A stretch of DNA of 60,083 nt, from contig CAYMJM010000004.1 in assembly GCA_964391325.1 (NCBI GenBank), forward strand, positions 1-60,083, written 5' to 3'. Position numbers and translations under genes: made by a program. This document shows, in pieces, positions 9,305 through 51,598 of this stretch (its first letter is position 1; each line of letters begins with the position of its first letter). The DNA comes from an uncultured Candidatus Saccharibacteria bacterium (GTDB lineage Bacteria; Patescibacteriota; Dojkabacteria; B142; JAFGMG01). Below the pieces are notes generated by a model that saw only the letters and a list, made by a program, of their open reading frames with translations, ran no database searches and was not told the origin of the DNA.

Positions 9305-9736
9305 ATGGGTATGCAACGAACATTAGCATACTGCCTCACAGTCTCAAGTCTCTGTCTTTCCTCTGGATGTGCCTCTGCCCCTAAGTCTCAAGAAGTAGCT
9401 ATAATAGAACCCCAACCGACATATGATGAAATTCAAAGAGTGGGAGGAATTACATTACTAGGCCAAGCACATTTGCATGCGACCGGACTATGGGTACCTA
9501 TTTCTTTTAAAACCCTTACTTTGCGCAGTGGCAACAACACCGCTAATATGCAGGACACTATGGGATTTGTTACTATCACCTGCTCAGAAGAGACTCCGCT
9601 GGAAGTAGGAATACATATCCCGGACAAACAACAAACTTTTCCGCTTACAAGGGAAGCTGCGGATCAAATAATAGAAATTCCATACATAGAAAGTGGGATC
9701 AATATCATAACAATGTGTAACCATCAGGAACCTTGA
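9305..9736 (+). CDS. Hypothetical putative lipoprotein
   Basis: MQRTLAYCLTVSSLCLSSGC: short signal ending in a lipobox-like SSGC, followed by a beta-rich domain. The ORF-track start (9182) overlaps the divergent M16 gene, so the start was moved. Confidence 0.55.
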   Translation: MGMQRTLAYCLTVSSLCLSSGCASAPKSQEVAIIEPQPTYDEIQRVGGITLLGQAHLHATGLWVPISFKTLTLRSGNNTANMQDTMGFVTITCSEETPLEVGIHIPDKQQTFPLTREAADQIIEIPYIESGINIITMCNHQEP

Positions 9737-10491
9737 GCTCTACTGCGTCTTTTCTTTTTTGCAGCAACCAGTTTGTTACCTTCCTTTAACCTGTCCTTTA
9801 GACTTTTTGAAGCCTTACGTATTTTTTTATTAACTTGAGTTTTACCCTTTGTGATCCCTTCCTTTTTGGAAGAAGACGTTTTATTCTGCTTCGTTCTGGC
9901 CTTTGCGTTGGCATAACTGCGTACAGACGTTTCTTTAATAGCCTCAATCTGTTTTGCCATAAATCCTTCGATTACAAAAAAAGTTGTCGAAATTTGCTGT
10001 TTCATTCTTCCTGTTAATCTGTGATGCTTTGTCTGTTCAACCTTGGATTTCGCAATACCGACAGGTGGAACAAGTTTCATCTCTTTATTTACAGAGTCCC
10101 AGCTTACATCAATTTTCATATCACTATCCTGCTGAGAAGTTATTTTGGAAGGATGAATTTTTAATTCCAGAGACATTTCTACGCCCTTTTTCCCTACAAA
10201 ATTTACCATAGGAACATTTACCCCGCCAACATCCCAGTCCTCGTAAGACTCCATCTTATCCTCCGGTCGGATAATAAAATAGAATATAACCATAGGGAAA
10301 CTGAGGAAGAAAGTCAAAACGAAAAACACAAACGCTAATTTTTTGCTACCATATCTTTTCCATGAGTCTACCCCCACCCATAGCGAAATCACTAGCCACA
10401 ATACAATGAGGTAAGAACAAAACATTGTCAAAAATGTCGAATAATCTATATCTTCATTAAAATCTATCAGTTCGACAAATAATTCTGACAT
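9724..10491 (-). CDS. Membrane protein with PLDc_N-like N-terminal TM domain and Lys-rich C-terminal tail
   Basis: LWVGVDSWKR..FPMVIFYFIIRPE resembles the phospholipase-D-nuclease N-terminal motif; basic low-complexity C-terminus. Start set at ATG 10491 because the longer ORF overlaps the tRNA. Confidence 0.6.
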   Translation of the reverse strand: MSELFVELIDFNEDIDYSTFLTMFCSYLIVLWLVISLWVGVDSWKRYGSKKLAFVFFVLTFFLSFPMVIFYFIIRPEDKMESYEDWDVGGVNVPMVNFVGKKGVEMSLELKIHPSKITSQQDSDMKIDVSWDSVNKEMKLVPPVGIAKSKVEQTKHHRLTGRMKQQISTTFFVIEGFMAKQIEAIKETSVRSYANAKARTKQNKTSSSKKEGITKGKTQVNKKIRKASKSLKDRLKEGNKLVAAKKKRRSRAQGS

Positions 10492-10532
10492 ATAACCGTA
10501 ATTAATAAGAATAAAATTTGCTAGCAGTAAAG

Positions 10533-10618
10533 TGCCGATGGTGGGAGTTGAACCCACACGCGGTTTAACCCGCACCGGATTTTGAGTCCGGCATGTCTAC
10601 CAGTTCCATCACATCGGC
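10533..10618 (-). tRNA. tRNA-Leu(CAA), long variable arm, no encoded CCA
   Basis: GCCGATG acceptor stem pairing with CATCGGC-A; anticodon arm CCGGA-CTCAAAA-TCCGG; variable arm GCGG-GTTAAA-CCGC; T arm GTGGG-TTCAACT-CCCAC. Confidence 0.97.
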
Positions 10619-27644: not shown

Positions 27645-30545
27645 TTAATTAAATCTTAGGGCCGCACCCAGATTGTATTCCCGTTTGATATCTTCCTCAG
27701 ATAAAGCATACTTAAAAATTTTTATTTCATCTAGGAGTCCAGAATATACTGATTGTCCCCATTGATTATTATGGAATTTTGCTATATACAAAGGCTGGGT
27801 ATTATTATTATCTAATGTCCAAGTCATAGTATTCTGGCTATCGAGTACTCCATCTACATACATCCTATGGTCACTAGATGATATATTCACAAATGTCACT
27901 AAATGCCATTTACCGTCATTAATTTGCTTATCACCATAAAAGTAATGATGTGTATTTGGACTCTCATGCCATCTTTCAAACGCTAACTTACCCGACATAA
28001 TACTAAAATAAAAAGGAAACGATACGATAGCTGTTGGCCGTGATTTACTGATAATAGGTAAAATTCCGCTCTCGGATGTCTTAATCCAGGCTGATAAGGT
28101 AAATTGATCAGATGGCAACCCCATGTTAAATACCTGAGCATGATTGACAGATACATAATCATTACTTCCATCAAAGTCTAGACATCCATTTAACTTACAA
28201 TTATCCCCACTTAACCAGTCTGTCTGCGTATCCATATTCATTAGTGTCCCGTGATGATTATTTCCTGAGTAATCGTGCGCTACCTCTCCTTGCTCCTCAT
28301 CCATCTTCCAGTATCCTATCGGTGCCCCTCCGTTGTATTCTATCGCTACTTCCCGCGCTGTCAATGCCCCTCCATATATCTTGACATTATCTATGCTGCT
28401 ATCTGTATACCTGTTACCTGTAGCATATCCTCCTATATAAGAAGTTGTACTGGGAGCTTGAGCACTCGTTCCTGAATATGTTCCTATTAGCCGTCCATCT
28501 AAATATACACTGGGAATTCCACTGTTATCTATACTCAGCACTATATGATGCCAACCTGTCCCTATCGCAGTATTTGTATCTATCCATCTCACGTTCTCAA
28601 AGAGAACTATTAAATCATTACCTAAATTGTCCATATCATCTGTACCTACTCCTATCCCATACCCATTACCTGACCCTACCTTCACAAACGCTCCTTTCTC
28701 ACTAGTTGAAACAAGATTAACCCATGCACTTATTGATACATTCGCGTTTCCTAAACCATATGTAGAATTTATCACTATATTCTCATCTACACCGTTGAAA
28801 TCTAACGCATTACCTATCTTACCCTTAACTATGTTCTCCTCTGCTGTCATGTTCTGCATGGTTCCGTTCTGGTCCCCCCCTATGCTATCGTATACTGTTG
28901 TACCACTCTTCTTCTCAAAATCATACTGTGCTAGTAAGTTTGAAGGCTTAAGCTCGTTATTTACCTTCAAATCTTCCTTATCGAATGCATACATATCAGC
29001 AATTTCCTGACTGGTCAGTGCCCTACTATATACCCTTAGATCATCCAACTTACCTTTGTAATATATTATATTATCAACATCACTTTGCGTATTTCGGGAA
29101 CGAGCCCCTACTATCATATAATTAGGATTTAGAAGACCATCATTTGTTGAATTAATAGCAGTATTCTCACCATAAAATTTTCCATCTATATATAACTTGA
29201 GAGATTGTGAATCTAGTATCATAACTACAAAATGCCAGACCCCATCTCTGTAAGTGCTGGAAGCATCAATATATCTATGGGTACCATTATAATCTGAAGC
29301 CGAGAAATTGCCATTAGTATTTCTCCATCCAAGCATAGTATGTCCACTACCACATTCATTAGCGTTACACTCTCCAAATTCCAGAATTGGACCGCTTGAC
29401 GTAGCTGTAGTATTAAACCACAGGCTAATTGTATAGTTTGTTCGTGATAGCTTCACAGGACCAGGGCGTATAGATCGGATCTGATCATCAACTCCATCAA
29501 AGCTTATAGCATTCCCCATCACTCCTCCTATCACACTTGGTGATCCCAAAGTAGTACCATGTCTGTTATGAGGACTTGAGTCCAAAACATTTCCAGCACT
29601 ATCATTGTAACTACTCTCGTCAAACATCCAATGTCCCTCCAAATTCTGTATACTTACATTATCACCTGATCCATTGCTAGGCTGGAAAGATCTAAATACT
29701 CGCCATATTTCCTCCGCTGTTGCTGAGTAATTGTAGAATACAACTTCATCTATTATCCCGTTAAACCAATAGCCTGTACTATCTCCTCCTATCACAAATT
29801 CTTCATCGCTGCTTAGATCGCTTATTGCACTTATATTATTATCAACCCCCTTTGCTCCCCCATTTACATATAACGCCAAACTACTATTTATGTCTTTTAC
29901 GCATACTATCCAATGCCATTCACCATTATCATATCTTTCAATACTTATTACATTATCTTCCGGAAACGCTTGACTGTCATCATCTATCCCACATACGACT
30001 TGCCCCGAACTATTCAAGTACAGCACATATCCAGCCGCTCCATTTATCCCGCCTTTTCCTGCTATAATTCTGGTTTCATCTACTTGTTCCTCTGCTTTAA
30101 ACCACACACTTAGCGAGAAACTCCCACCAGCTCCAATATTCAAGGCATCACTCTGCTCTATTCCTATGTAATCATCCGTCCCATCCAACCGTAACCCGTT
30201 TCCGATCTTCCCGTGAACCCAATCCCCTTTTTCTATCACTCCATTCACCACTCCGCTAAAATCATTCATTTCCTCTGCTACTTGGACTCCTTCTTTCTCG
30301 TTTAAATGCCATACTGCCGTCGGCTCAACTTCCCCTGTCTCCGACTTGAGTAAACTTATATTCTCCTTGCCTAGCTCTATCAGTGCGTTTACATCACCCT
30401 TCCTTGAGGTGTTTTCACGACTGTAAACCACTAAAAGCAAAACACTTGCTGCAACAAGCAATAGTATGACCAATCTGATTTTACTTCTAAAAATCCTAGT
30501 TACCTTAAAAATATAGGTCCTTACTTTTTTAAATAAAAATGACAT
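27645..30545 (-). CDS. Secreted/anchored protein with four tandem LamG-like (concanavalin A-like) domains
   Basis: N-terminal hydrophobic segment; four units starting WHLNE / HWMFDE / QYDFEK / YWKMDE, each with G..G.AL.FDG.DD, FT(I/L)S.W, DG.WH and G.(I/L)D(E/D)(V/L)..Y..AL. Confidence 0.92.
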   Translation of the reverse strand: MSFLFKKVRTYIFKVTRIFRSKIRLVILLLVAASVLLLVVYSRENTSRKGDVNALIELGKENISLLKSETGEVEPTAVWHLNEKEGVQVAEEMNDFSGVVNGVIEKGDWVHGKIGNGLRLDGTDDYIGIEQSDALNIGAGGSFSLSVWFKAEEQVDETRIIAGKGGINGAAGYVLYLNSSGQVVCGIDDDSQAFPEDNVISIERYDNGEWHWIVCVKDINSSLALYVNGGAKGVDNNISAISDLSSDEEFVIGGDSTGYWFNGIIDEVVFYNYSATAEEIWRVFRSFQPSNGSGDNVSIQNLEGHWMFDESSYNDSAGNVLDSSPHNRHGTTLGSPSVIGGVMGNAISFDGVDDQIRSIRPGPVKLSRTNYTISLWFNTTATSSGPILEFGECNANECGSGHTMLGWRNTNGNFSASDYNGTHRYIDASSTYRDGVWHFVVMILDSQSLKLYIDGKFYGENTAINSTNDGLLNPNYMIVGARSRNTQSDVDNIIYYKGKLDDLRVYSRALTSQEIADMYAFDKEDLKVNNELKPSNLLAQYDFEKKSGTTVYDSIGGDQNGTMQNMTAEENIVKGKIGNALDFNGVDENIVINSTYGLGNANVSISAWVNLVSTSEKGAFVKVGSGNGYGIGVGTDDMDNLGNDLIVLFENVRWIDTNTAIGTGWHHIVLSIDNSGIPSVYLDGRLIGTYSGTSAQAPSTTSYIGGYATGNRYTDSSIDNVKIYGGALTAREVAIEYNGGAPIGYWKMDEEQGEVAHDYSGNNHHGTLMNMDTQTDWLSGDNCKLNGCLDFDGSNDYVSVNHAQVFNMGLPSDQFTLSAWIKTSESGILPIISKSRPTAIVSFPFYFSIMSGKLAFERWHESPNTHHYFYGDKQINDGKWHLVTFVNISSSDHRMYVDGVLDSQNTMTWTLDNNNTQPLYIAKFHNNQWGQSVYSGLLDEIKIFKYALSEEDIKREYNLGAALRFN

Positions 30546-36942: not shown

Positions 36943-37194
36943 TTATACATATTCACTAAAAGGTAGTAGAGCCATATACCTAGCTCTCTTAATTTCCCTT
37001 GCCAATTTTCTTTGGCACTTGGGGGATACACCAGTTTTTTCAGGACTTAGTATCCTCCCGCGTGTTGTAATAAACTTTTTCAGCTTATACACATCTTTGT
37101 AAGAAATTTTGCTAGGGTCCTTATCAAAAGGGCAAGATAGGTTCTGTGGCTTACCTTTGTACCTATTATTCTTTTTTTTCTTCTTTCCAGCCAT
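36943..37194 (-). CDS. rpsR: 30S ribosomal protein bS18
   Basis: [46 protein letters not shown]. Confidence 0.98.
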
Positions 37195-37740: not shown

Positions 37741-38028
37741 TTATATATTATCCCGTTTGATTAAAAGATACCTTAAAACATCACTTTCCAACTTCAGGTC
37801 GTGTTCGAACTCTTTCACTTTATCCGTATCAAGGTTTAGATCTAAAACTACATAATAGCCTTCTTCGTGAGATTTAATTTTGTAAGCTAAATGCCTTTTA
37901 CCCCAAACATCGGTTTCATTGATCTTACCTCCAGCTTGCTTTACTAGTTTCTCAATTTTTTTGAGAACTTTGGATTTAATATCTTCCGGTAAAAGTGGCT
38001 TTATGATAACCATCAATTCATAATTCAT
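37741..38028 (-). CDS. rpsF: 30S ribosomal protein bS6
   Basis: MNYELMVII, WGKRHLAYKI, EGYYV, VLRYL; canonical rpsF-ssb-rpsR order. Confidence 0.97.
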   Translation of the reverse strand: MNYELMVIIKPLLPEDIKSKVLKKIEKLVKQAGGKINETDVWGKRHLAYKIKSHEEGYYVVLDLNLDTDKVKEFEHDLKLESDVLRYLLIKRDNI

Positions 38029-38061
38029 ATCTACCATACAATAAATTAAATAGACTGAGTG

Positions 38062-39249: not shown

Positions 39250-40755
39250 CTATTCAGCCCAGCCAAAAATTTCTTCCTGATCTATGACTTTTCTTCCTAA
39301 TGCAAGCCTTACATCAGATGTAGCATATAAGGTAACTAGAGTCTCTCCAGCCTGCACTTGCTGTCCCTGCTTTACATGGAAATAGAGACCGGCTTCTTTA
39401 ATACGAGGGTTGCCTAAGGCTTTAGCAACTTCAAAAATTTTTTGATTATTCACGCTATCTAGTATGCCAGATTTTTTAGATTTAAACTCATATGTGATTC
39501 CACCAAGCTCAAGGCTACTGGATCCGACCTCAGGATCTCCACCCTGTGCTTTAATAATTTGCCTCAACTTGATCTCAGCCTTCCCTGATAATAGCGTCTC
39601 TTGAGCTAACTTGAACCCCTGTCCCTCAGCAGCCTTCCCTAGAAGTTCTAATAAATCTCCAGCCATAGCAACAGCATCATGCTCTAACTGCAAGGATCTA
39701 TCTTCTACCTGTTCATAAACTTTTAAGAATTCCTTACACTCAAGGCTTGGACCGACAGCATTTCCATCAAGCCACTTAATATCTCTTCTGTGTACTCTTA
39801 CATTAATCCCAAATTTTGCACCAATGCTTTCAAACATAGTCTTTACCTCATCAAAATGCTCAACATCTATCTTAGCTCCCTTTCCTACAGGCACATCAAA
39901 AATTACATGATTAACTCCTTGGGCTATTTTTTTAGCTAAGATACTGGACACAAACTTGTCTATAGACTCGATTCCAAGGAATTTCTGAATTTTTATGATA
40001 GCATCATCGGCAGGTGCTAAATCAAGTCCCCCCCCCCAGACCATAAAAGCGCCAATCTCATCTATCATCTGCTCGAGTTGTCTTCTTTCGAAAGTCATAG
40101 GCATTATAACCTCTAACATGTCTGTGGTAGCACTCGCACTTGTAACGGCTCGTGTTGATGTATTAGGCACTATAGTGTCATTTGCCGCGATTATAGGTAC
40201 AATTAAAGGAGTAATCCCTTTTCCAGCAACTCCGCCTATTGAGTGCTTATCTGCCACTTGTCCCTTAAACTTCAACACATCTCCGGTCATAGCCAGAGCT
40301 TTAGTCATAAGCAAAATCTCCTCTCTGTTGAATCCAGGTGAATAACCACTAGCAATAAAAAATGATGTCAAGATATCACTTAGCCTACCGTTTGCAATAT
40401 CCCTCATTATAGAATAGAAATCCTGGTAGTTTAATTCCTCTCCCAATAACTTCTTCCTAATTGAAACCAGAGCCTCTGATTTATCCATCAAAGTAATGGT
40501 AACCACATCCTTCTCTTTCAAATCATACTTCTGCCATATATCCTGATATACTCCTATTTCTCCTTCTCCAATTAATGTCTGACTTGTATCAATAGTAACA
40601 ATCAGGGGATTTTCTAACCCATTCCAGGTGATTTCCACCCTATCCCCTGCATTGACACCAATACCATATTGTTGCGCATCAAACTCATTGATTAAGCAGA
40701 TCAATTCATCTCCAGAATTAATATCCAGTTTCTTTGCTGATAAATAGAATTTCAT
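39250..40755 (-). CDS. deoA: AMP phosphorylase (archaeal-type DeoA / thymidine phosphorylase family)
   Basis: ~500 aa with extra N-terminal beta-barrel domain; DKHSIGGV, TSTRAVTSAS..DMLEV, LAPADD, ILAKKIAQG, DVPVGKGAK. Confidence 0.92.
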   Translation of the reverse strand: MKFYLSAKKLDINSGDELICLINEFDAQQYGIGVNAGDRVEITWNGLENPLIVTIDTSQTLIGEGEIGVYQDIWQKYDLKEKDVVTITLMDKSEALVSIRKKLLGEELNYQDFYSIMRDIANGRLSDILTSFFIASGYSPGFNREEILLMTKALAMTGDVLKFKGQVADKHSIGGVAGKGITPLIVPIIAANDTIVPNTSTRAVTSASATTDMLEVIMPMTFERRQLEQMIDEIGAFMVWGGGLDLAPADDAIIKIQKFLGIESIDKFVSSILAKKIAQGVNHVIFDVPVGKGAKIDVEHFDEVKTMFESIGAKFGINVRVHRRDIKWLDGNAVGPSLECKEFLKVYEQVEDRSLQLEHDAVAMAGDLLELLGKAAEGQGFKLAQETLLSGKAEIKLRQIIKAQGGDPEVGSSSLELGGITYEFKSKKSGILDSVNNQKIFEVAKALGNPRIKEAGLYFHVKQGQQVQAGETLVTLYATSDVRLALGRKVIDQEEIFGWAE

Positions 40756-40773: not shown

Positions 40774-41679
40774 TTATATCCAAGGGTATATTTCCTTGGC
40801 TTTGCTCGTCAGCTCAGAAGCTTGTAATAATCCTGCCTCAGTGATATAGCCACTTACGAAATTAGAGGGAATTAGCTCAAATGAAGGATTTATAATCTTC
40901 AAACTATCAGGAGCTTCTGGCCATACTTCTTCTGCTGGCCTCATCTCTATAACTGGATCTTCAATCTGTCTGTGAAAATCCATCTTTAATAAGCTAGCTA
41001 ATACAAAAAACTTGTCCCTGTCTTCTTTAGCTGCTAATGCCAATTGATAGCTGCCCACTTTATTAATACACCTTCCGTCAGCGAGAACCTCATCAGCCCC
41101 AATTATAACAACCTCTATCGGGAGATACTTGTCTTCCACTATAAAGTAGGCACCCAGAGAGTCAACTATTTGTGTTACGTCTACTCCTACCTCTAACAGC
41201 TTTGCTGCCGTTTTTCTACCCTGAAATAGTGGTCTTGTCTCTGTGGCTATAACTTTTAAGCGCGGATTTACATTAAAAACTTCAATAATCGCGCTGTTTG
41301 CCGTTGAAGAGTGACAATGAGTAAATATAGTATTATATTGCATCAATACCTCAACTGCGTGTCGTTTTATACTTTGCTTGGATTGCTCGATAATATGCTT
41401 AAATTCTGCTATTCCAGCTCTTGCTTGCTCTATAGCGTTGTTATCTGATGCGTTTTTTAGTTTTTCTAATACATATCTAACAGCATTACGAGCTAAAGGC
41501 TCATTTTTCCTAGCAGTACTAAGCCTGACTCCAACTAATTCTATTTTCTCCAATACTCCAGGACCTCCCTGATCTACAGTCAATTGCATCCCCTCCAAAG
41601 TTGCAAGAGCTACATTAGTTGCTCCTTGTACATTTACAGCCTTAATGTCCGCATAAAGCTTATCTATTTGGTCTTGCAT
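40774..41679 (-). CDS. Ribose-1,5-bisphosphate isomerase (eIF-2B/MtnA superfamily)
   Basis: VQGA, THCHS (catalytic Cys), ETRPLFQG, IIGAD (catalytic Asp), NKVGS, NPSFE; adjacent to AMP phosphorylase. Confidence 0.88.
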   Translation of the reverse strand: MQDQIDKLYADIKAVNVQGATNVALATLEGMQLTVDQGGPGVLEKIELVGVRLSTARKNEPLARNAVRYVLEKLKNASDNNAIEQARAGIAEFKHIIEQSKQSIKRHAVEVLMQYNTIFTHCHSSTANSAIIEVFNVNPRLKVIATETRPLFQGRKTAAKLLEVGVDVTQIVDSLGAYFIVEDKYLPIEVVIIGADEVLADGRCINKVGSYQLALAAKEDRDKFFVLASLLKMDFHRQIEDPVIEMRPAEEVWPEAPDSLKIINPSFELIPSNFVSGYITEAGLLQASELTSKAKEIYPWI

Positions 41680-47201: not shown

Positions 47202-47420
47202 TTAAATTCCCTTTCCCTTTAGTCTCCTTTGTCTAGCAGCGCTACTTCTCCTTTTTTTCTGCTTAGCATATTCCTTCTTCACCTCATGTCGCTTTTCAGA
47301 AGGTTTGATTCTATATCGGTTCTTCTCATATTCTTCCGGTATATTCTCTCTGATAGCTTCACGCCATAACATCCTTAAAGCCTGATCTATCGGCATATCA
47401 TCATGTACTATTACTGACAT
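47202..47420 (-). CDS. rpsU: 30S ribosomal protein bS21
   Basis: IDQALRML..YRIKPSEKR, basic C-terminal helix, 72 aa. Confidence 0.9.
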   Translation of the reverse strand: MSVIVHDDMPIDQALRMLWREAIRENIPEEYEKNRYRIKPSEKRHEVKKEYAKQKKRRSSAARQRRLKGKGI

Positions 47421-47426
47421 TACTAA

Positions 47427-47435
47427 ATCACCTCC
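47427..47435 (-). promoter_or_regulatory. Strong Shine-Dalgarno sequence GGAGGTGAT of rpsU
   Basis: 9-nt perfect complement of the canonical 16S 3' end, 6 nt before ATG 47420. Confidence 0.85.
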
Positions 47436-47464
47436 CCTAAATATTTTGTAAGTAAATTCAAAGG

Positions 47465-47473
47465 ATTATAACA
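47465..47473 (-). promoter_or_regulatory. Extended -10 promoter (TGTTATAAT) of rpsU
   Basis: Perfect TGnTATAAT 44 nt before the ATG. Confidence 0.65.
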
Positions 47474-50380: not shown

Positions 50381-51496
50381 TTAACTATTCTTAATTTCCT
50401 CCACCCCTTTGGGACCTATTCCTTTGATCTCAAGTAGATCCTCTTTTCTCATTTTCTTGGCCTCTGACAATTTTATTTTAGCATCTTTTAATGCACTTTT
50501 TACCCTATCACTTACTTCTTTTTTCTTTGGTTTCTTGGCTATTTGCTCATTTTGCCTGCCCTGCTCTTCTTTAGCTTTCTGAACACGCTCTAAAATACCC
50601 TCACCTGTGGGCTTTTTCGCTTGTACTGACTCAACTTTGGTGATGATAGCTTCCTGTTCTTCTGTCATTTCGTCTGGGTACTTTGTCAATTCGTCTTTGT
50701 CAGACTTCCGGATCTCTACTTCATACTTTGAGTAGTCAGTAAATACATGTTTAACACCTTTAGTATTGTTTCCTTGCTTCACTGCTTTTGCAAATAAACT
50801 GAAGAGTAGCTGAATAGATGATATTGCATCATCATTGCCAGGGACAGGGTAGTTAACAATATCAGGATCACAGTTAGTGTCGACAATTGCAACCACAGGT
50901 ACACCTACTAGTCTTGCTTCGCGTACTGCATTTTTTTCATATTTGGCGTCAAGGACTACCACTGCCGTTGGCTTAGATTCCATAGACTTAACTCCTTCGT
51001 AAAGCCTGTTCAATCTTTCCCATTCTTTCTTCATTCTTGAAATTTCAAATTTCGTTCTACCTTCTATACCAGCTTCAAATGCCTCTTCTAAAGTAATAAG
51101 CTTTTTCAAACTTCGTCGTGTGTAGTTGAAGTTAGTTAGAAGTCCTCCAACCCATCTATGTATGATAAAGTATGCTCCAGCGTCCACTGCCATATCCTTG
51201 ATAATATCTCTTGCCTGTCTTTTCGTTCCCACAAAAAGAACTGTGCCTCTAGAAGATGCTTCAACAAGAAATTTTAGAGCTTTTACCAACTCTTCGAAAG
51301 TTTGACCGACATCAATAATATGCAACCCTGCCCTGTCAGCGTAAATATATTTACTCATCTTAGGATTCCATCTTTTGGTCTGATGCCCAAATTGCACACC
51401 TGCTTCAAGAAAGTTAACTGCTTCAGGCATGTCAAAATTAAAATTCATTGATTTGCTGATAGGCTTCACAGCTTCGGGAGATTTATTTTCTGCCAT
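50381..51496 (-). CDS. rpsB: 30S ribosomal protein uS2 with long C-terminal extension ending in an alphaCTD/HhH-like domain
   Basis: FLEAGVQFGHQTKRWNPKM, LFVGTKRQA, RWVGGLLTN, VDTNCDP, PGNDDA; tail VSDRVKSAL..EDLLEIKGIGPKGVEEI. Confidence 0.97.
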   Translation of the reverse strand: MAENKSPEAVKPISKSMNFNFDMPEAVNFLEAGVQFGHQTKRWNPKMSKYIYADRAGLHIIDVGQTFEELVKALKFLVEASSRGTVLFVGTKRQARDIIKDMAVDAGAYFIIHRWVGGLLTNFNYTRRSLKKLITLEEAFEAGIEGRTKFEISRMKKEWERLNRLYEGVKSMESKPTAVVVLDAKYEKNAVREARLVGVPVVAIVDTNCDPDIVNYPVPGNDDAISSIQLLFSLFAKAVKQGNNTKGVKHVFTDYSKYEVEIRKSDKDELTKYPDEMTEEQEAIITKVESVQAKKPTGEGILERVQKAKEEQGRQNEQIAKKPKKKEVSDRVKSALKDAKIKLSEAKKMRKEDLLEIKGIGPKGVEEIKNS

Positions 51497-51528
51497 TCTT
51501 TGAATACCTTATTTTAATAAATTAAAAA

Positions 51529-51580
51529 CCCTCCCCATCTTAATAAGTGTTAGTTACAGGTATAACAAGACGGGTGTTAA
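51529..51580 (-). ncRNA. Putative S2/t44-like rpsB 5' leader RNA
   Basis: AACAC-CCGUCUU..AAGAUGG-GGAGG; CCCGUCUU (51574-51567) pairs with AAGAUGGG (51541-51534); inner GUUAU/GUAAC hairpin. Confidence 0.55.
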
Positions 51581-51589
51581 TGTATTTAA

Positions 51590-51598
51590 ATTATATCA
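51590..51598 (-). promoter_or_regulatory. Extended -10 promoter (TGATATAAT) of rpsB-tsf-frr
   Basis: Perfect TGnTATAAT just upstream of the leader. Confidence 0.65.

Follow-up and report, generated by a model that had tools for sequence, protein, structure and literature searches.

A conserved extended Shine-Dalgarno sequence on rpsU in a Candidatus Dojkabacteria clade that otherwise initiates without one, and a possible bS21 feedback

The window analysed here is a 60,083-nucleotide (nt) stretch of DNA (contig CAYMJM010000004.1, assembly GCA_964391325.1, positions 1 to 60,083). On its minus strand it carries rpsU, the gene for ribosomal protein bS21, directly behind an extended Shine-Dalgarno (SD) sequence, i.e. 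a complement of the anti-SD in the 3' tail of 16S rRNA. This observation was confirmed as real, non-random and conserved. The following features make up the locus.

47202..47420, minus strand: rpsU coding sequence (bS21, 72 amino acids (aa), begins MSVIVHDDMPIDQALRMLWRE), from the list of open reading frames (ORFs) and Pfam Ribosomal_S21
47421..47426, minus strand: spacer TTAGTA, from the SD extension to the ATG, from the sequence
47427..47437, minus strand: extended SD GGGGAGGTGAT, from the sequence and its duplex energy with the canonical 16S tail
47421..47458, minus strand: rpsU 5' untranslated region, predicted to be short (about 38 nt) and unstructured, its start inferred from the -10 box
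47465..47473, minus strand: extended -10 promoter element TGTTATAAT, 44 nt 5' of the rpsU ATG, from the sequence

On the minus strand the leader runs from TGTTATAAT (47473..47465) through 27 nt to GGGGAGGTGAT (47437..47427), TTAGTA and the ATG (47420), and places the GGAGG core of the SD at positions -15 to -11 relative to the A of the ATG. GGAGGTGAT forms nine Watson-Crick pairs with AUCACCUCC, followed upstream by two G-U pairs; an earlier interpretation made from the letters of the window only (hereafter the sequence-only reading) had counted these pairs correctly. Potential pairing with the 16S tail spans 47425-47438, and up to 14 contiguous pairs (10 Watson-Crick and 4 G-U) are available if the tail is GGAUCACCUCCUUU. 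GGAGGTGAT occurs only once in the window when both strands (120 kb) are searched.

Duplex energies were calculated with the canonical 16S tail GAUCACCUCCUUUCU. The rpsU start reached -18.9 kcal/mol, and the 52 other ORF starts of the window, called by a simple longest-ORF procedure, were at -8.1 kcal/mol or weaker. Within the window, and with the canonical tail standing in for the genome's own 16S, rpsU was therefore an extreme outlier and the only gene with a strong SD, as the sequence-only reading had claimed. The weak matches which that reading had listed elsewhere were recovered as well (TAAGG before rpsB, -6.1 kcal/mol; GAGG before the 11115 gene, -5.9 kcal/mol). When every 12-mer of the window was scanned, 62 sites paired at -12 kcal/mol or stronger. 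58 of the 62 were inside genes, and the rpsU site was the sole intergenic one properly positioned before a start codon. A value of -17.9 kcal/mol was reached at just three positions, which, together with the retention of the motif in 22 related species, makes the rpsU SD more than a chance match. Internal in-frame starts with SD-like sequence in YebC (2805), the IF-2B family gene (41553/41583) and the CCA enzyme gene (44489) were rejected as real starts because the respective Pfam domains begin 5' of them.

The rpsU leader together with the first codons folded at -4.8 kcal/mol (z = +1.7 relative to shuffles, i.e. less structured than chance), and no Rfam family matched the leader. Both results ruled out a hairpin or riboswitch masking the SD. 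No good -35 element was found at the rpsU promoter, and a generic -35/-10 scan missed the promoter because of this poor -35. No terminator was found between rpsU and dnaX. The public gene call for an identical bS21 (P0001) is 86 aa long and begins at an upstream in-frame codon, so that the SD falls within the called gene. The 88-codon ORFs of L003 and L006 may be too long in the same way. The rpsU SD may thus escape notice in automatic annotation.

The window bS21 matched Pfam PF01165 (E 2.8e-9; 37 bits against a cut-off of 27), and a PDB profile search with it returned S21 chains. An AlphaFold2 (AF2) model (confidence score pLDDT 86) predicted helices at residues 11-24, 27-35 and 40-67. Its closest folds were ordinary bS21 proteins of Psychrobacter, E. 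coli and Pseudomonas (TM up to 0.74); the model supports the fold, RNA contacts being outside its reach. All 55 bS21 homologues came from close relatives, and those with a name were Candidatus Dojkabacteria. The family is isolated, with just 31 cluster representatives at E <=0.001 among 1.84 billion proteins, and no phage-borne copies of this bS21 type were present in IMG/VR. The lineage is Candidatus Dojkabacteria (WS6). Its bS21 is atypical: the N-terminal half is acidic to neutral (isoelectric point (pI) about 5-8), ALRMLWRE replaces the usual basic ALRRFKR, and W19, Y36 and H45 are invariant in the alignment. One subclade (L016, L019, L022, L026) has an extra C-terminal ...KNKTFLQ(V/I/Q)YY(N)R tail, which recalls the RLY motif of gammaproteobacterial bS21.

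A scan of a genome collection yielded loci from 28 species, which bear the labels Dojkabacteria, WS6 or the generic ones Saccharibacteria and 'bacterium' and have the synteny rpsB-tsf-frr-rseP-rpsU-dnaX in common. A GGAGGT(G) box was located directly 5' of the rpsU ATG in 23 of the 28 loci (-11.6 to -18.5 kcal/mol). The rpsU SD is also carried by CP129475.1 and JYNZ01000003.1, complete or near-complete Dojkabacteria genomes. A tree was computed from DnaX and bS21; the position of L009 in it rests on bS21. The main clade of this tree consisted of 22 loci and the window, and all 23 members had the box, with energies of -11.6 to -18.9 kcal/mol; the conservation in related genomes on which the sequence-only reading depended was thus found. 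The sister clade (L013, L015, L024, L025, L027, L028) had no rpsU box, L025 excepted. In 21 non-redundant main-clade leaders GGAGGT was invariant and followed by G in 17, the contiguous stretch able to pair with the canonical tail had a median of 9 (range 7-14), and the spacer from SD to ATG was 8-10 nt long in 18 of 21. The SD extensions varied by species on both sides, yet all of them matched the canonical tail ...CACCUCCUUU, and the remainder of the leaders was A/T-rich and not conserved. A single element of the rpsU leader is conserved: 7-14 nt that complement the canonical 16S 3' tail, set 8-10 nt ahead of the ATG. In 27 of 29 leaders an extended -10 box of the TGnTAnAAT type was present 22-77 nt 5' of rpsU. 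rpsU hence has its own promoter, a further point in which the sequence-only reading was right, and it is a monocistronic-start gene whose leader is short and unstructured. As a separate observation, bS21 of five sister-clade loci (L013, L015, L024, L027, L028) is of a REGVIEK type, and rpsU, rpsR, rpsF and rpsB of these loci are mostly without SD. L027 has somewhat more SDs (frr, -11.1 kcal/mol; rpsR, -10.0 kcal/mol).

Distant bS21 relatives were drawn from a representative library and their contigs were examined. rpsU had no SD in six of seven distant lineages (those of P0058, P0063, P0064, P0066, P0067 and P0068). In the P0059 lineage an SD was present (ACGGAGGTAA, -10.9 kcal/mol), and all distant-relative loci were otherwise SD-poor. 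The rpsU SD belongs to one Dojkabacteria clade and at least one related lineage. A trait of the whole candidate phyla radiation (CPR), the scope implied by the sequence-only reading, was ruled out by the outgroup loci: SDs are scarce in the sister clade and in six more distant lineages as well, and still rpsU is SD-less there. A strong rpsU SD as a universal trait was ruled out by E. coli rpsU, with an unremarkable -8.5 kcal/mol.

For the background of other genes, homology-anchored starts were evaluated in up to 28 genomes; start sites beyond this set are approximate. Two of the genes in question are located in the window as follows.

36943..37194, minus strand: rpsR (bS18), comparator, Pfam S18, no SD (-0.7 kcal/mol)
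37741..38037, minus strand: rpsF (bS6, 98 aa), comparator, Pfam S6, no SD (-1.1 kcal/mol)

Median energies were -0.7 kcal/mol for tsf, -0.6 for frr, -0.85 for rseP, -1.65 for dnaX, -1.95 for rpsF, -0.3 for ssb and -1.8 for rpsR, and just 3 of the 145 starts of these seven genes reached -8 kcal/mol or stronger. rpsR was without SD in 12 of 13 Dojkabacteria loci. 457 pooled Dojkabacteria starts had a median of -1.8 kcal/mol, with 9% at -6 or stronger, compared with -2.7 kcal/mol and 16% for random Dojkabacteria 19-mers; start regions thus pair more weakly with the anti-SD than random sequence does. The same pipeline gave a median of -6.8 kcal/mol and 66% at -6 or stronger for 70 annotated E. coli starts. 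Between positions -15 and -5 upstream of Dojkabacteria starts G made up 8-18% and A+T 75-85%, without G enrichment. Nearly every other gene of the lineage has an A/U-rich, G-poor leader without SD, and the SD-poor background claimed by the sequence-only reading holds in the window and across the sampled Dojkabacteria loci. Inside Dojkabacteria coding regions, relative to synonymous-codon shuffles, the observed/expected ratio was 0.89 for GGAGG (z -3.4) and 0.44 for GGAGGTG (z -3.1). Five control pentamers were at about 1.0, and internal GGAGG in the E. coli control was at 0.48. The specific depletion of internal extended SD-like motifs suggests that long matches can still be bound by the anti-SD in vivo.

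The second gene with recurrent strong SDs was rpsB, which encodes uS2. The window contains the following rpsB features.

50381..51496, minus strand: rpsB (uS2), comparator, Pfam S2, with just TAAGGT (-6.1 kcal/mol) in the window
51497..51598, minus strand: rpsB leader, from the leader alignment and an RNAalifold helix with covariation
51598..51590, minus strand: -10 box TGATATAAT of the rpsB leader, from the leader alignment
51576..51569, minus strand: leader box CACCCGTC, from the leader alignment
51539..51529, minus strand: leader box GATGGGGAGGG, from the leader alignment

In a Dojkabacteria subclade (L008, L016, L017, L019, L026) AAGGAG precedes rpsB at -8.8 to -13.4 kcal/mol. Three outgroups with an SD-less rpsU also have a strong rpsB SD: L030 (151) at -10.3, L032 (2420) at -12.9 and L036 (2505; AAAGGAGGTG) at -16.3 kcal/mol. 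Neighbours of rpsB are without SD where the rpsB SD is strong. Which platform-protein gene bears the SD hence depends on the lineage, a pattern also known from the orders of Bacteroidia. The claim that rpsU has the only strong SD therefore stands for the window and fails for other Dojkabacteria and their relatives, where rpsB has one too.

A structured rpsB leader was detected in the window (51497-51598, minus strand) and in 12 loci (L005, L007, L008, L012, L014, L016, L017, L019, L022, L023, L025, L026). Its elements are, in order, an own TGnTATAAT box, a 5' box CACACACCC, an anti-SD-like segment (T)CCTTG, a hairpin, GGGTGGAGG and the SD. The hairpin stem varies in sequence by species and always keeps its pairing. 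GGGTGGAGG pairs with the 5' box in a long-range helix with compensatory changes (RNAalifold), and the inner hairpin covaries. A 'tandem SD' upstream of rpsB was considered and rejected, the distal GGGTGGAGG being the 3' strand of the conserved leader helix instead. The leader has a distant resemblance to t44 (RF00127), the S2 leader of enterobacteria: when compared with this family, L016:5892-5974 scored 23.9 bits (E 0.003), below the gathering score of 44. Rfam found no t44 match at the gathering threshold in the window or in seven loci. From its sequence and covariation, the rpsB leader is probably a uS2 autoregulatory leader not yet in Rfam for CPR. uS2 itself is long (357-371 aa) in the window (50381-51496, minus strand) and in two outgroup contigs (L030:151-1227, L032:2420-3526), and in all three its C-terminal extension gave weak matches to the C-terminal (helix-hairpin-helix) domain of RNA polymerase alpha, PF03118.

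rpsU thus carries a selected, exposed anti-SD complement in a lineage otherwise not using SDs. By analogy with the rpsU circuit of Flavobacterium, and not as a member of that circuit, a bS21 feedback through the rpsU-specific SD is proposed, a reading which we hold to be evenly poised between right and wrong. Normal initiation in Dojkabacteria would proceed without SD-anti-SD pairing, and the rpsU mRNA would be the one message recruited by it. bS21 would adjoin the anti-SD, and its occupancy would limit pairing with the rpsU SD. A 30S subunit without bS21, either newly assembled or after bS21 dissociation, would then engage the rpsU SD better than complete subunits do. The outcome would be a negative feedback that keeps bS21 stoichiometric with ribosomes. 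In favour of the proposal are the outlier energy of rpsU, the SD-poor background, the box conserved throughout the main clade, the unstructured leader with a promoter of its own, the ordinary E. coli rpsU, the depletion of internal SD-like motifs and the precedent in F. johnsoniae. In SD-bearing genomes such pairing would be expected to go along with a 16S 3' end of ...GAUCACCUCCUU. Full-text literature searches combining Shine-Dalgarno or bS21 with Patescibacteria, CPR or Dojkabacteria gave no description of an rpsU-specific SD in CPR, in agreement with the sequence-only reading, whose authoring model knew of none. Loss of the anti-SD in CPR has been reported just for a Parcubacteria subgroup, in a study that did not address SD use (PMC9297842). 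The same study found several CPR lineages without any bS21, so bS21-free ribosomes are viable in CPR.

Several points weigh against this proposal, one of which concerns the anti-SD pocket known from Bacteroidia. In F. johnsoniae the 16S 3' tail is held by Tyr54 and a weakly basic C-terminal domain of bS21, by Y32, K37, F50, N56 and Q58 of bS18, and by W100, R103 and K107 in a Bacteroidia-specific C-terminal helix of bS6 (PMC7797042). The Dojkabacteria proteins were compared with the bS21 and bS18 (chain w) sequences of 7JIL and, for F. johnsoniae bS6, by alignment ranges. In the alignment the window bS6 covered residues 3-94 of its F. johnsoniae counterpart (113 aa), and bS6 stopped 2-4 residues past the core in 16 of 16 Dojkabacteria loci, so that there is no helix with W100, R103 and K107. 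The window bS18 has S, K, T and R at the positions of Y32, F50, N56 and Q58. Across Dojkabacteria, K was found at F50 in 11 of 13 bS18 sequences and T, T and R at N56, E57 and Q58 in 13 of 13; position 37 was mostly G and position 32 variable. The C-terminal part of Dojkabacteria bS21 has a pI of 11.5-12.0 and a net charge of +10 to +15 (pI 9.5 in F. johnsoniae, 11.9 in E. coli), and no aromatic residue at the Tyr54 position. At position 52, which is offset from Tyr54 by two residues, W, Y or F is common without being strictly conserved; an aromatic there also occurs in some SD-less relatives. The Bacteroidia pocket signature is thus absent in all three proteins, and occlusion by bS21, bS18 and bS6, the structural basis named by the sequence-only reading, is not supported by this comparison. 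With these three features lacking, the locus should not be counted as part of the Bacteroidia system; by analogy it may nevertheless work like that system.

To the same side belongs the distribution of the SD. Sister and outgroup lineages are equally SD-poor with an SD-less rpsU, and SD-independent initiation therefore does not require an SD on rpsU. In one subclade of the main clade (L012, L017, L020, L023) the SD is just AGGAGGT. At 7 base pairs (bp) this is a strong SD of ordinary length, without hyper-extension. Such SDs would be too short for the steric route, which makes an exclusion of bS21 by steric means less plausible in that subclade and weakens this version of the proposal for it. 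The mild depletion of internal SD-like motifs would be compatible with a masked or a free tail, and its fit to a free anti-SD counts against masking. Moreover, 20-60 kb were sampled per genome, from the same syntenic neighbourhood each time and not from whole genomes. All SD energies assume the canonical 16S tail, the lineage's own 16S 3' end not being in the data; an Rfam search was negative for rRNA in the window and in seven related loci, and the 16S 3' end motif (<=2 mismatches) was absent from the window and the 28 genome loci (L001-L028).

As the Bacteroidia platform pocket is absent, the way in which bS21 limits access to the anti-SD would have to differ. One candidate means is steric competition by the long basic C-terminal helix of bS21, another a lineage-specific contact of the unusual bS21, with its acidic N-terminal half, invariant W19 and H45 and aromatic at position 52. 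The 30S subunit of F. johnsoniae cannot accommodate the bS21 C-terminal helix together with a long helix of SD and anti-SD (PMC13000457). This result offers a possible route without the pocket, for which the 11-14 bp helix of the window may be long enough. Of the claim that this lineage uses the same feedback logic, two parts therefore survived, in that the logic is plausible and the SD pattern conserved; the Bacteroidia structural basis was absent, and the scope is smaller than CPR.

The feedback has to be weighed against a simpler role of the SD, in which the anti-SD would be free on all ribosomes, most genes would have drifted to A/U-rich, bS1-dependent initiation, and rpsU would have kept its SD for high or robust translation without any feedback by bS21. 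The missing Bacteroidia pocket residues, the mild avoidance of internal SD-like motifs (expected if the anti-SD is accessible), the ordinary 7-bp SD in part of the clade and the relatives that manage without an rpsU SD all agree with such a constitutive enhancer. If it were correct, other highly expressed genes should gain as well, yet rpsF, rpsR, tsf, frr, ssb and rpmE are SD-less in up to 28 genomes, and start regions pair below the level of random sequence. The gene singled out encodes a protein located on the anti-SD, the same coincidence as in Flavobacteriales, and E. coli rpsU has no such excess. We therefore regard the enhancer as rather unlikely while taking it seriously. Far less is to be said for a motif that is not a ribosome-binding site, whether it were a chance match, belonged to the promoter or to the 5' end of the transcript, or were bound by a protein or small RNA. 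The 16S pairing partner is assumed to be canonical, and nothing specific speaks for this explanation. The motif keeps its place 8-10 nt from the ATG, whereas the -10 box can be anywhere between 22 and 77 nt away, the species-specific extensions always follow the canonical tail, the motif is invariant over 23 genomes in otherwise unconserved A/T-rich leaders, and neither an Rfam match nor structure was found. We consider this explanation barely credible.

Feedback could also arise without masking of the anti-SD. Subunits lacking late platform proteins (bS21, or uS2 and the dependent bS1) would be poor on SD-less leaders and competent on a strong SD, the messages for those very proteins would keep an SD, and the feedback would consist in loss of a competing activity and not in unmasking. 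rpsB, the other recurrent SD gene, fits this with its strong SDs in the Dojkabacteria subclade and in the three outgroups with an SD-less rpsU, and bS21-lacking ribosomes of F. johnsoniae are defective on SD-less mRNAs, with bS1 disordered (PMC9976891, PMC13000457). The rpsB SD, however, is inside a structured t44-like leader, probably with its own regulation by uS2 binding, and for this reason rpsB may be an unrelated case. We judge this possibility improbable, though less so than a motif without function in ribosome binding.

If the bS21 feedback is extended to an evolutionary statement, it would represent a second independent origin of specialised-ribosome self-regulation, in a CPR lineage remote from Bacteroidota, in which bS21-free 30S subunits selectively translate rpsU through the genome's only SD, with a different structural solution for access to the anti-SD that needs neither the bS6 helix nor the pocket residues of bS18 and bS21. 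More broadly, residual SDs in SD-independent bacteria would be self-completion signals on genes of late-assembling, anti-SD-proximal proteins (bS21 in the main Dojkabacteria clade, uS2 in relatives, bS18 in Bacteroidales). This extension is put forward tentatively and remains doubtful even to us. If true, it would account for the conservation of the anti-SD where a lineage otherwise makes no use of it. The Flavobacterium rpsU circuit is the clearest bacterial case in which the protein composition of the ribosome chooses the message. It has so far been treated as a speciality of the class Bacteroidia, tied to pocket residues unique to that class. The same genomic signature without those residues suggests either a general principle (a long SD helix versus bS21) or a second evolution. 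It would also provide a handle on translation control in CPR, whose reduced ribosomes are often without bS21, and it bears on the question why bacteria not using SDs keep the anti-SD.

Elsewhere in the window, nearly all genes are on the minus strand. G+C content is 35-40%, and GC skew is uniform at about -0.2 without a switch, so the whole window belongs to one replichore. Two very large adjacent ORFs, 19505-27499 (minus strand) and 27645-30545 (minus strand), encode proteins of 2664 aa and of 966 aa, the latter with four concanavalin/laminin-G-like domains; judged by sequence, both are probably surface proteins of a type common in CPR genomes. A glycosyl-transferase-family-3/pyrimidine-nucleoside-phosphorylase-like gene (39250-40755, minus strand) adjoins an IF-2B-family gene (40774-41679, minus strand), and the pair resembles the nucleotide-salvage pair of AMP phosphorylase and ribose-1,5-bisphosphate isomerase reported for CPR and archaea. 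No RuBisCO was found in the 60,083-nt window. The sole RNA gene of the window is tRNA-Leu(CAA) at 10532-10618 (minus strand). It is overlapped by about 44 nt by a longest-ORF call with a GTG start (9724-10575, minus strand), and the true start of the latter gene is therefore further downstream.

Among known systems the closest is the autoregulation of rpsU by bS21-lacking ribosomes in Flavobacteriales, for which genetic, biochemical and structural support exists in F. johnsoniae (Jha 2021, PMC7797042; McNutt 2023, PMC9976891; Naeem 2026, PMC13000453; Arpin 2026, PMC13000457). rpsU is the one F. johnsoniae gene with an extended SD and is translated faster by bS21-lacking ribosomes (PMC9976891), and cells with an ablated anti-SD are rescued when the initiation region of rpsU is rewired. 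A 13-bp SD-anti-SD helix sterically excludes the bS21 C-terminal helix in this species (PMC13000457). The Dojkabacteria locus shares with this circuit an SD-poor genome in which rpsU alone is preceded by strong and extended complementarity to the 16S tail (GGAGGUGA... in F. johnsoniae), a short leader with the SD at a similar distance before the AUG (stated in this form because the numbering in the papers is ambiguous by one nucleotide), and retention across a clade but not the whole phylum. It differs in phylum, Patescibacteria (CPR) being unrelated and Dojkabacteria known here from sequence alone, in a bS6 without C-terminal helix, a bS18 without F50, N56 and Q58, and a bS21 with a strongly basic C-terminal part and no equivalent of Tyr54. 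SD length is 7-14 bp in Dojkabacteria and up to 13 bp in Flavobacteriales, and the F. johnsoniae papers confine the mechanism to the class Bacteroidia (PMC7797042, PMC9976891, PMC13000453, PMC13000457).

In Bacteroidia that otherwise lack SDs, rpsR has one in Bacteroidales, and rpsB, rpsG and rpsS have one in Sphingobacteriia (PMC7797042, Table 1). As among these orders, the small-subunit gene that keeps its SD shifts by lineage in Dojkabacteria, from rpsU in the main clade to rpsB in a subclade and the outgroups. As differences, rpsR is nearly always SD-less in Dojkabacteria, and their rpsB SD sits in a structured leader. The S2/t44 leader of rpsB-tsf (RF00127), an example of classical autoregulation in which a ribosomal protein binds a structured leader of its mRNA, is comparable in that a ribosomal protein exerts feedback at translation initiation, and the Dojkabacteria rpsB leader seems to belong to this type; the rpsU leader, by contrast, has no conserved structure or rRNA mimic, and its conserved element is the SD alone. 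In Francisella tularensis ribosomes with bS21 paralogues (PMC9578407, PMC13374519), bS21 content likewise alters which messages are translated, but there several paralogues and leader features of virulence genes are involved, in place of the single rpsU-specific SD in an SD-less genome described here.

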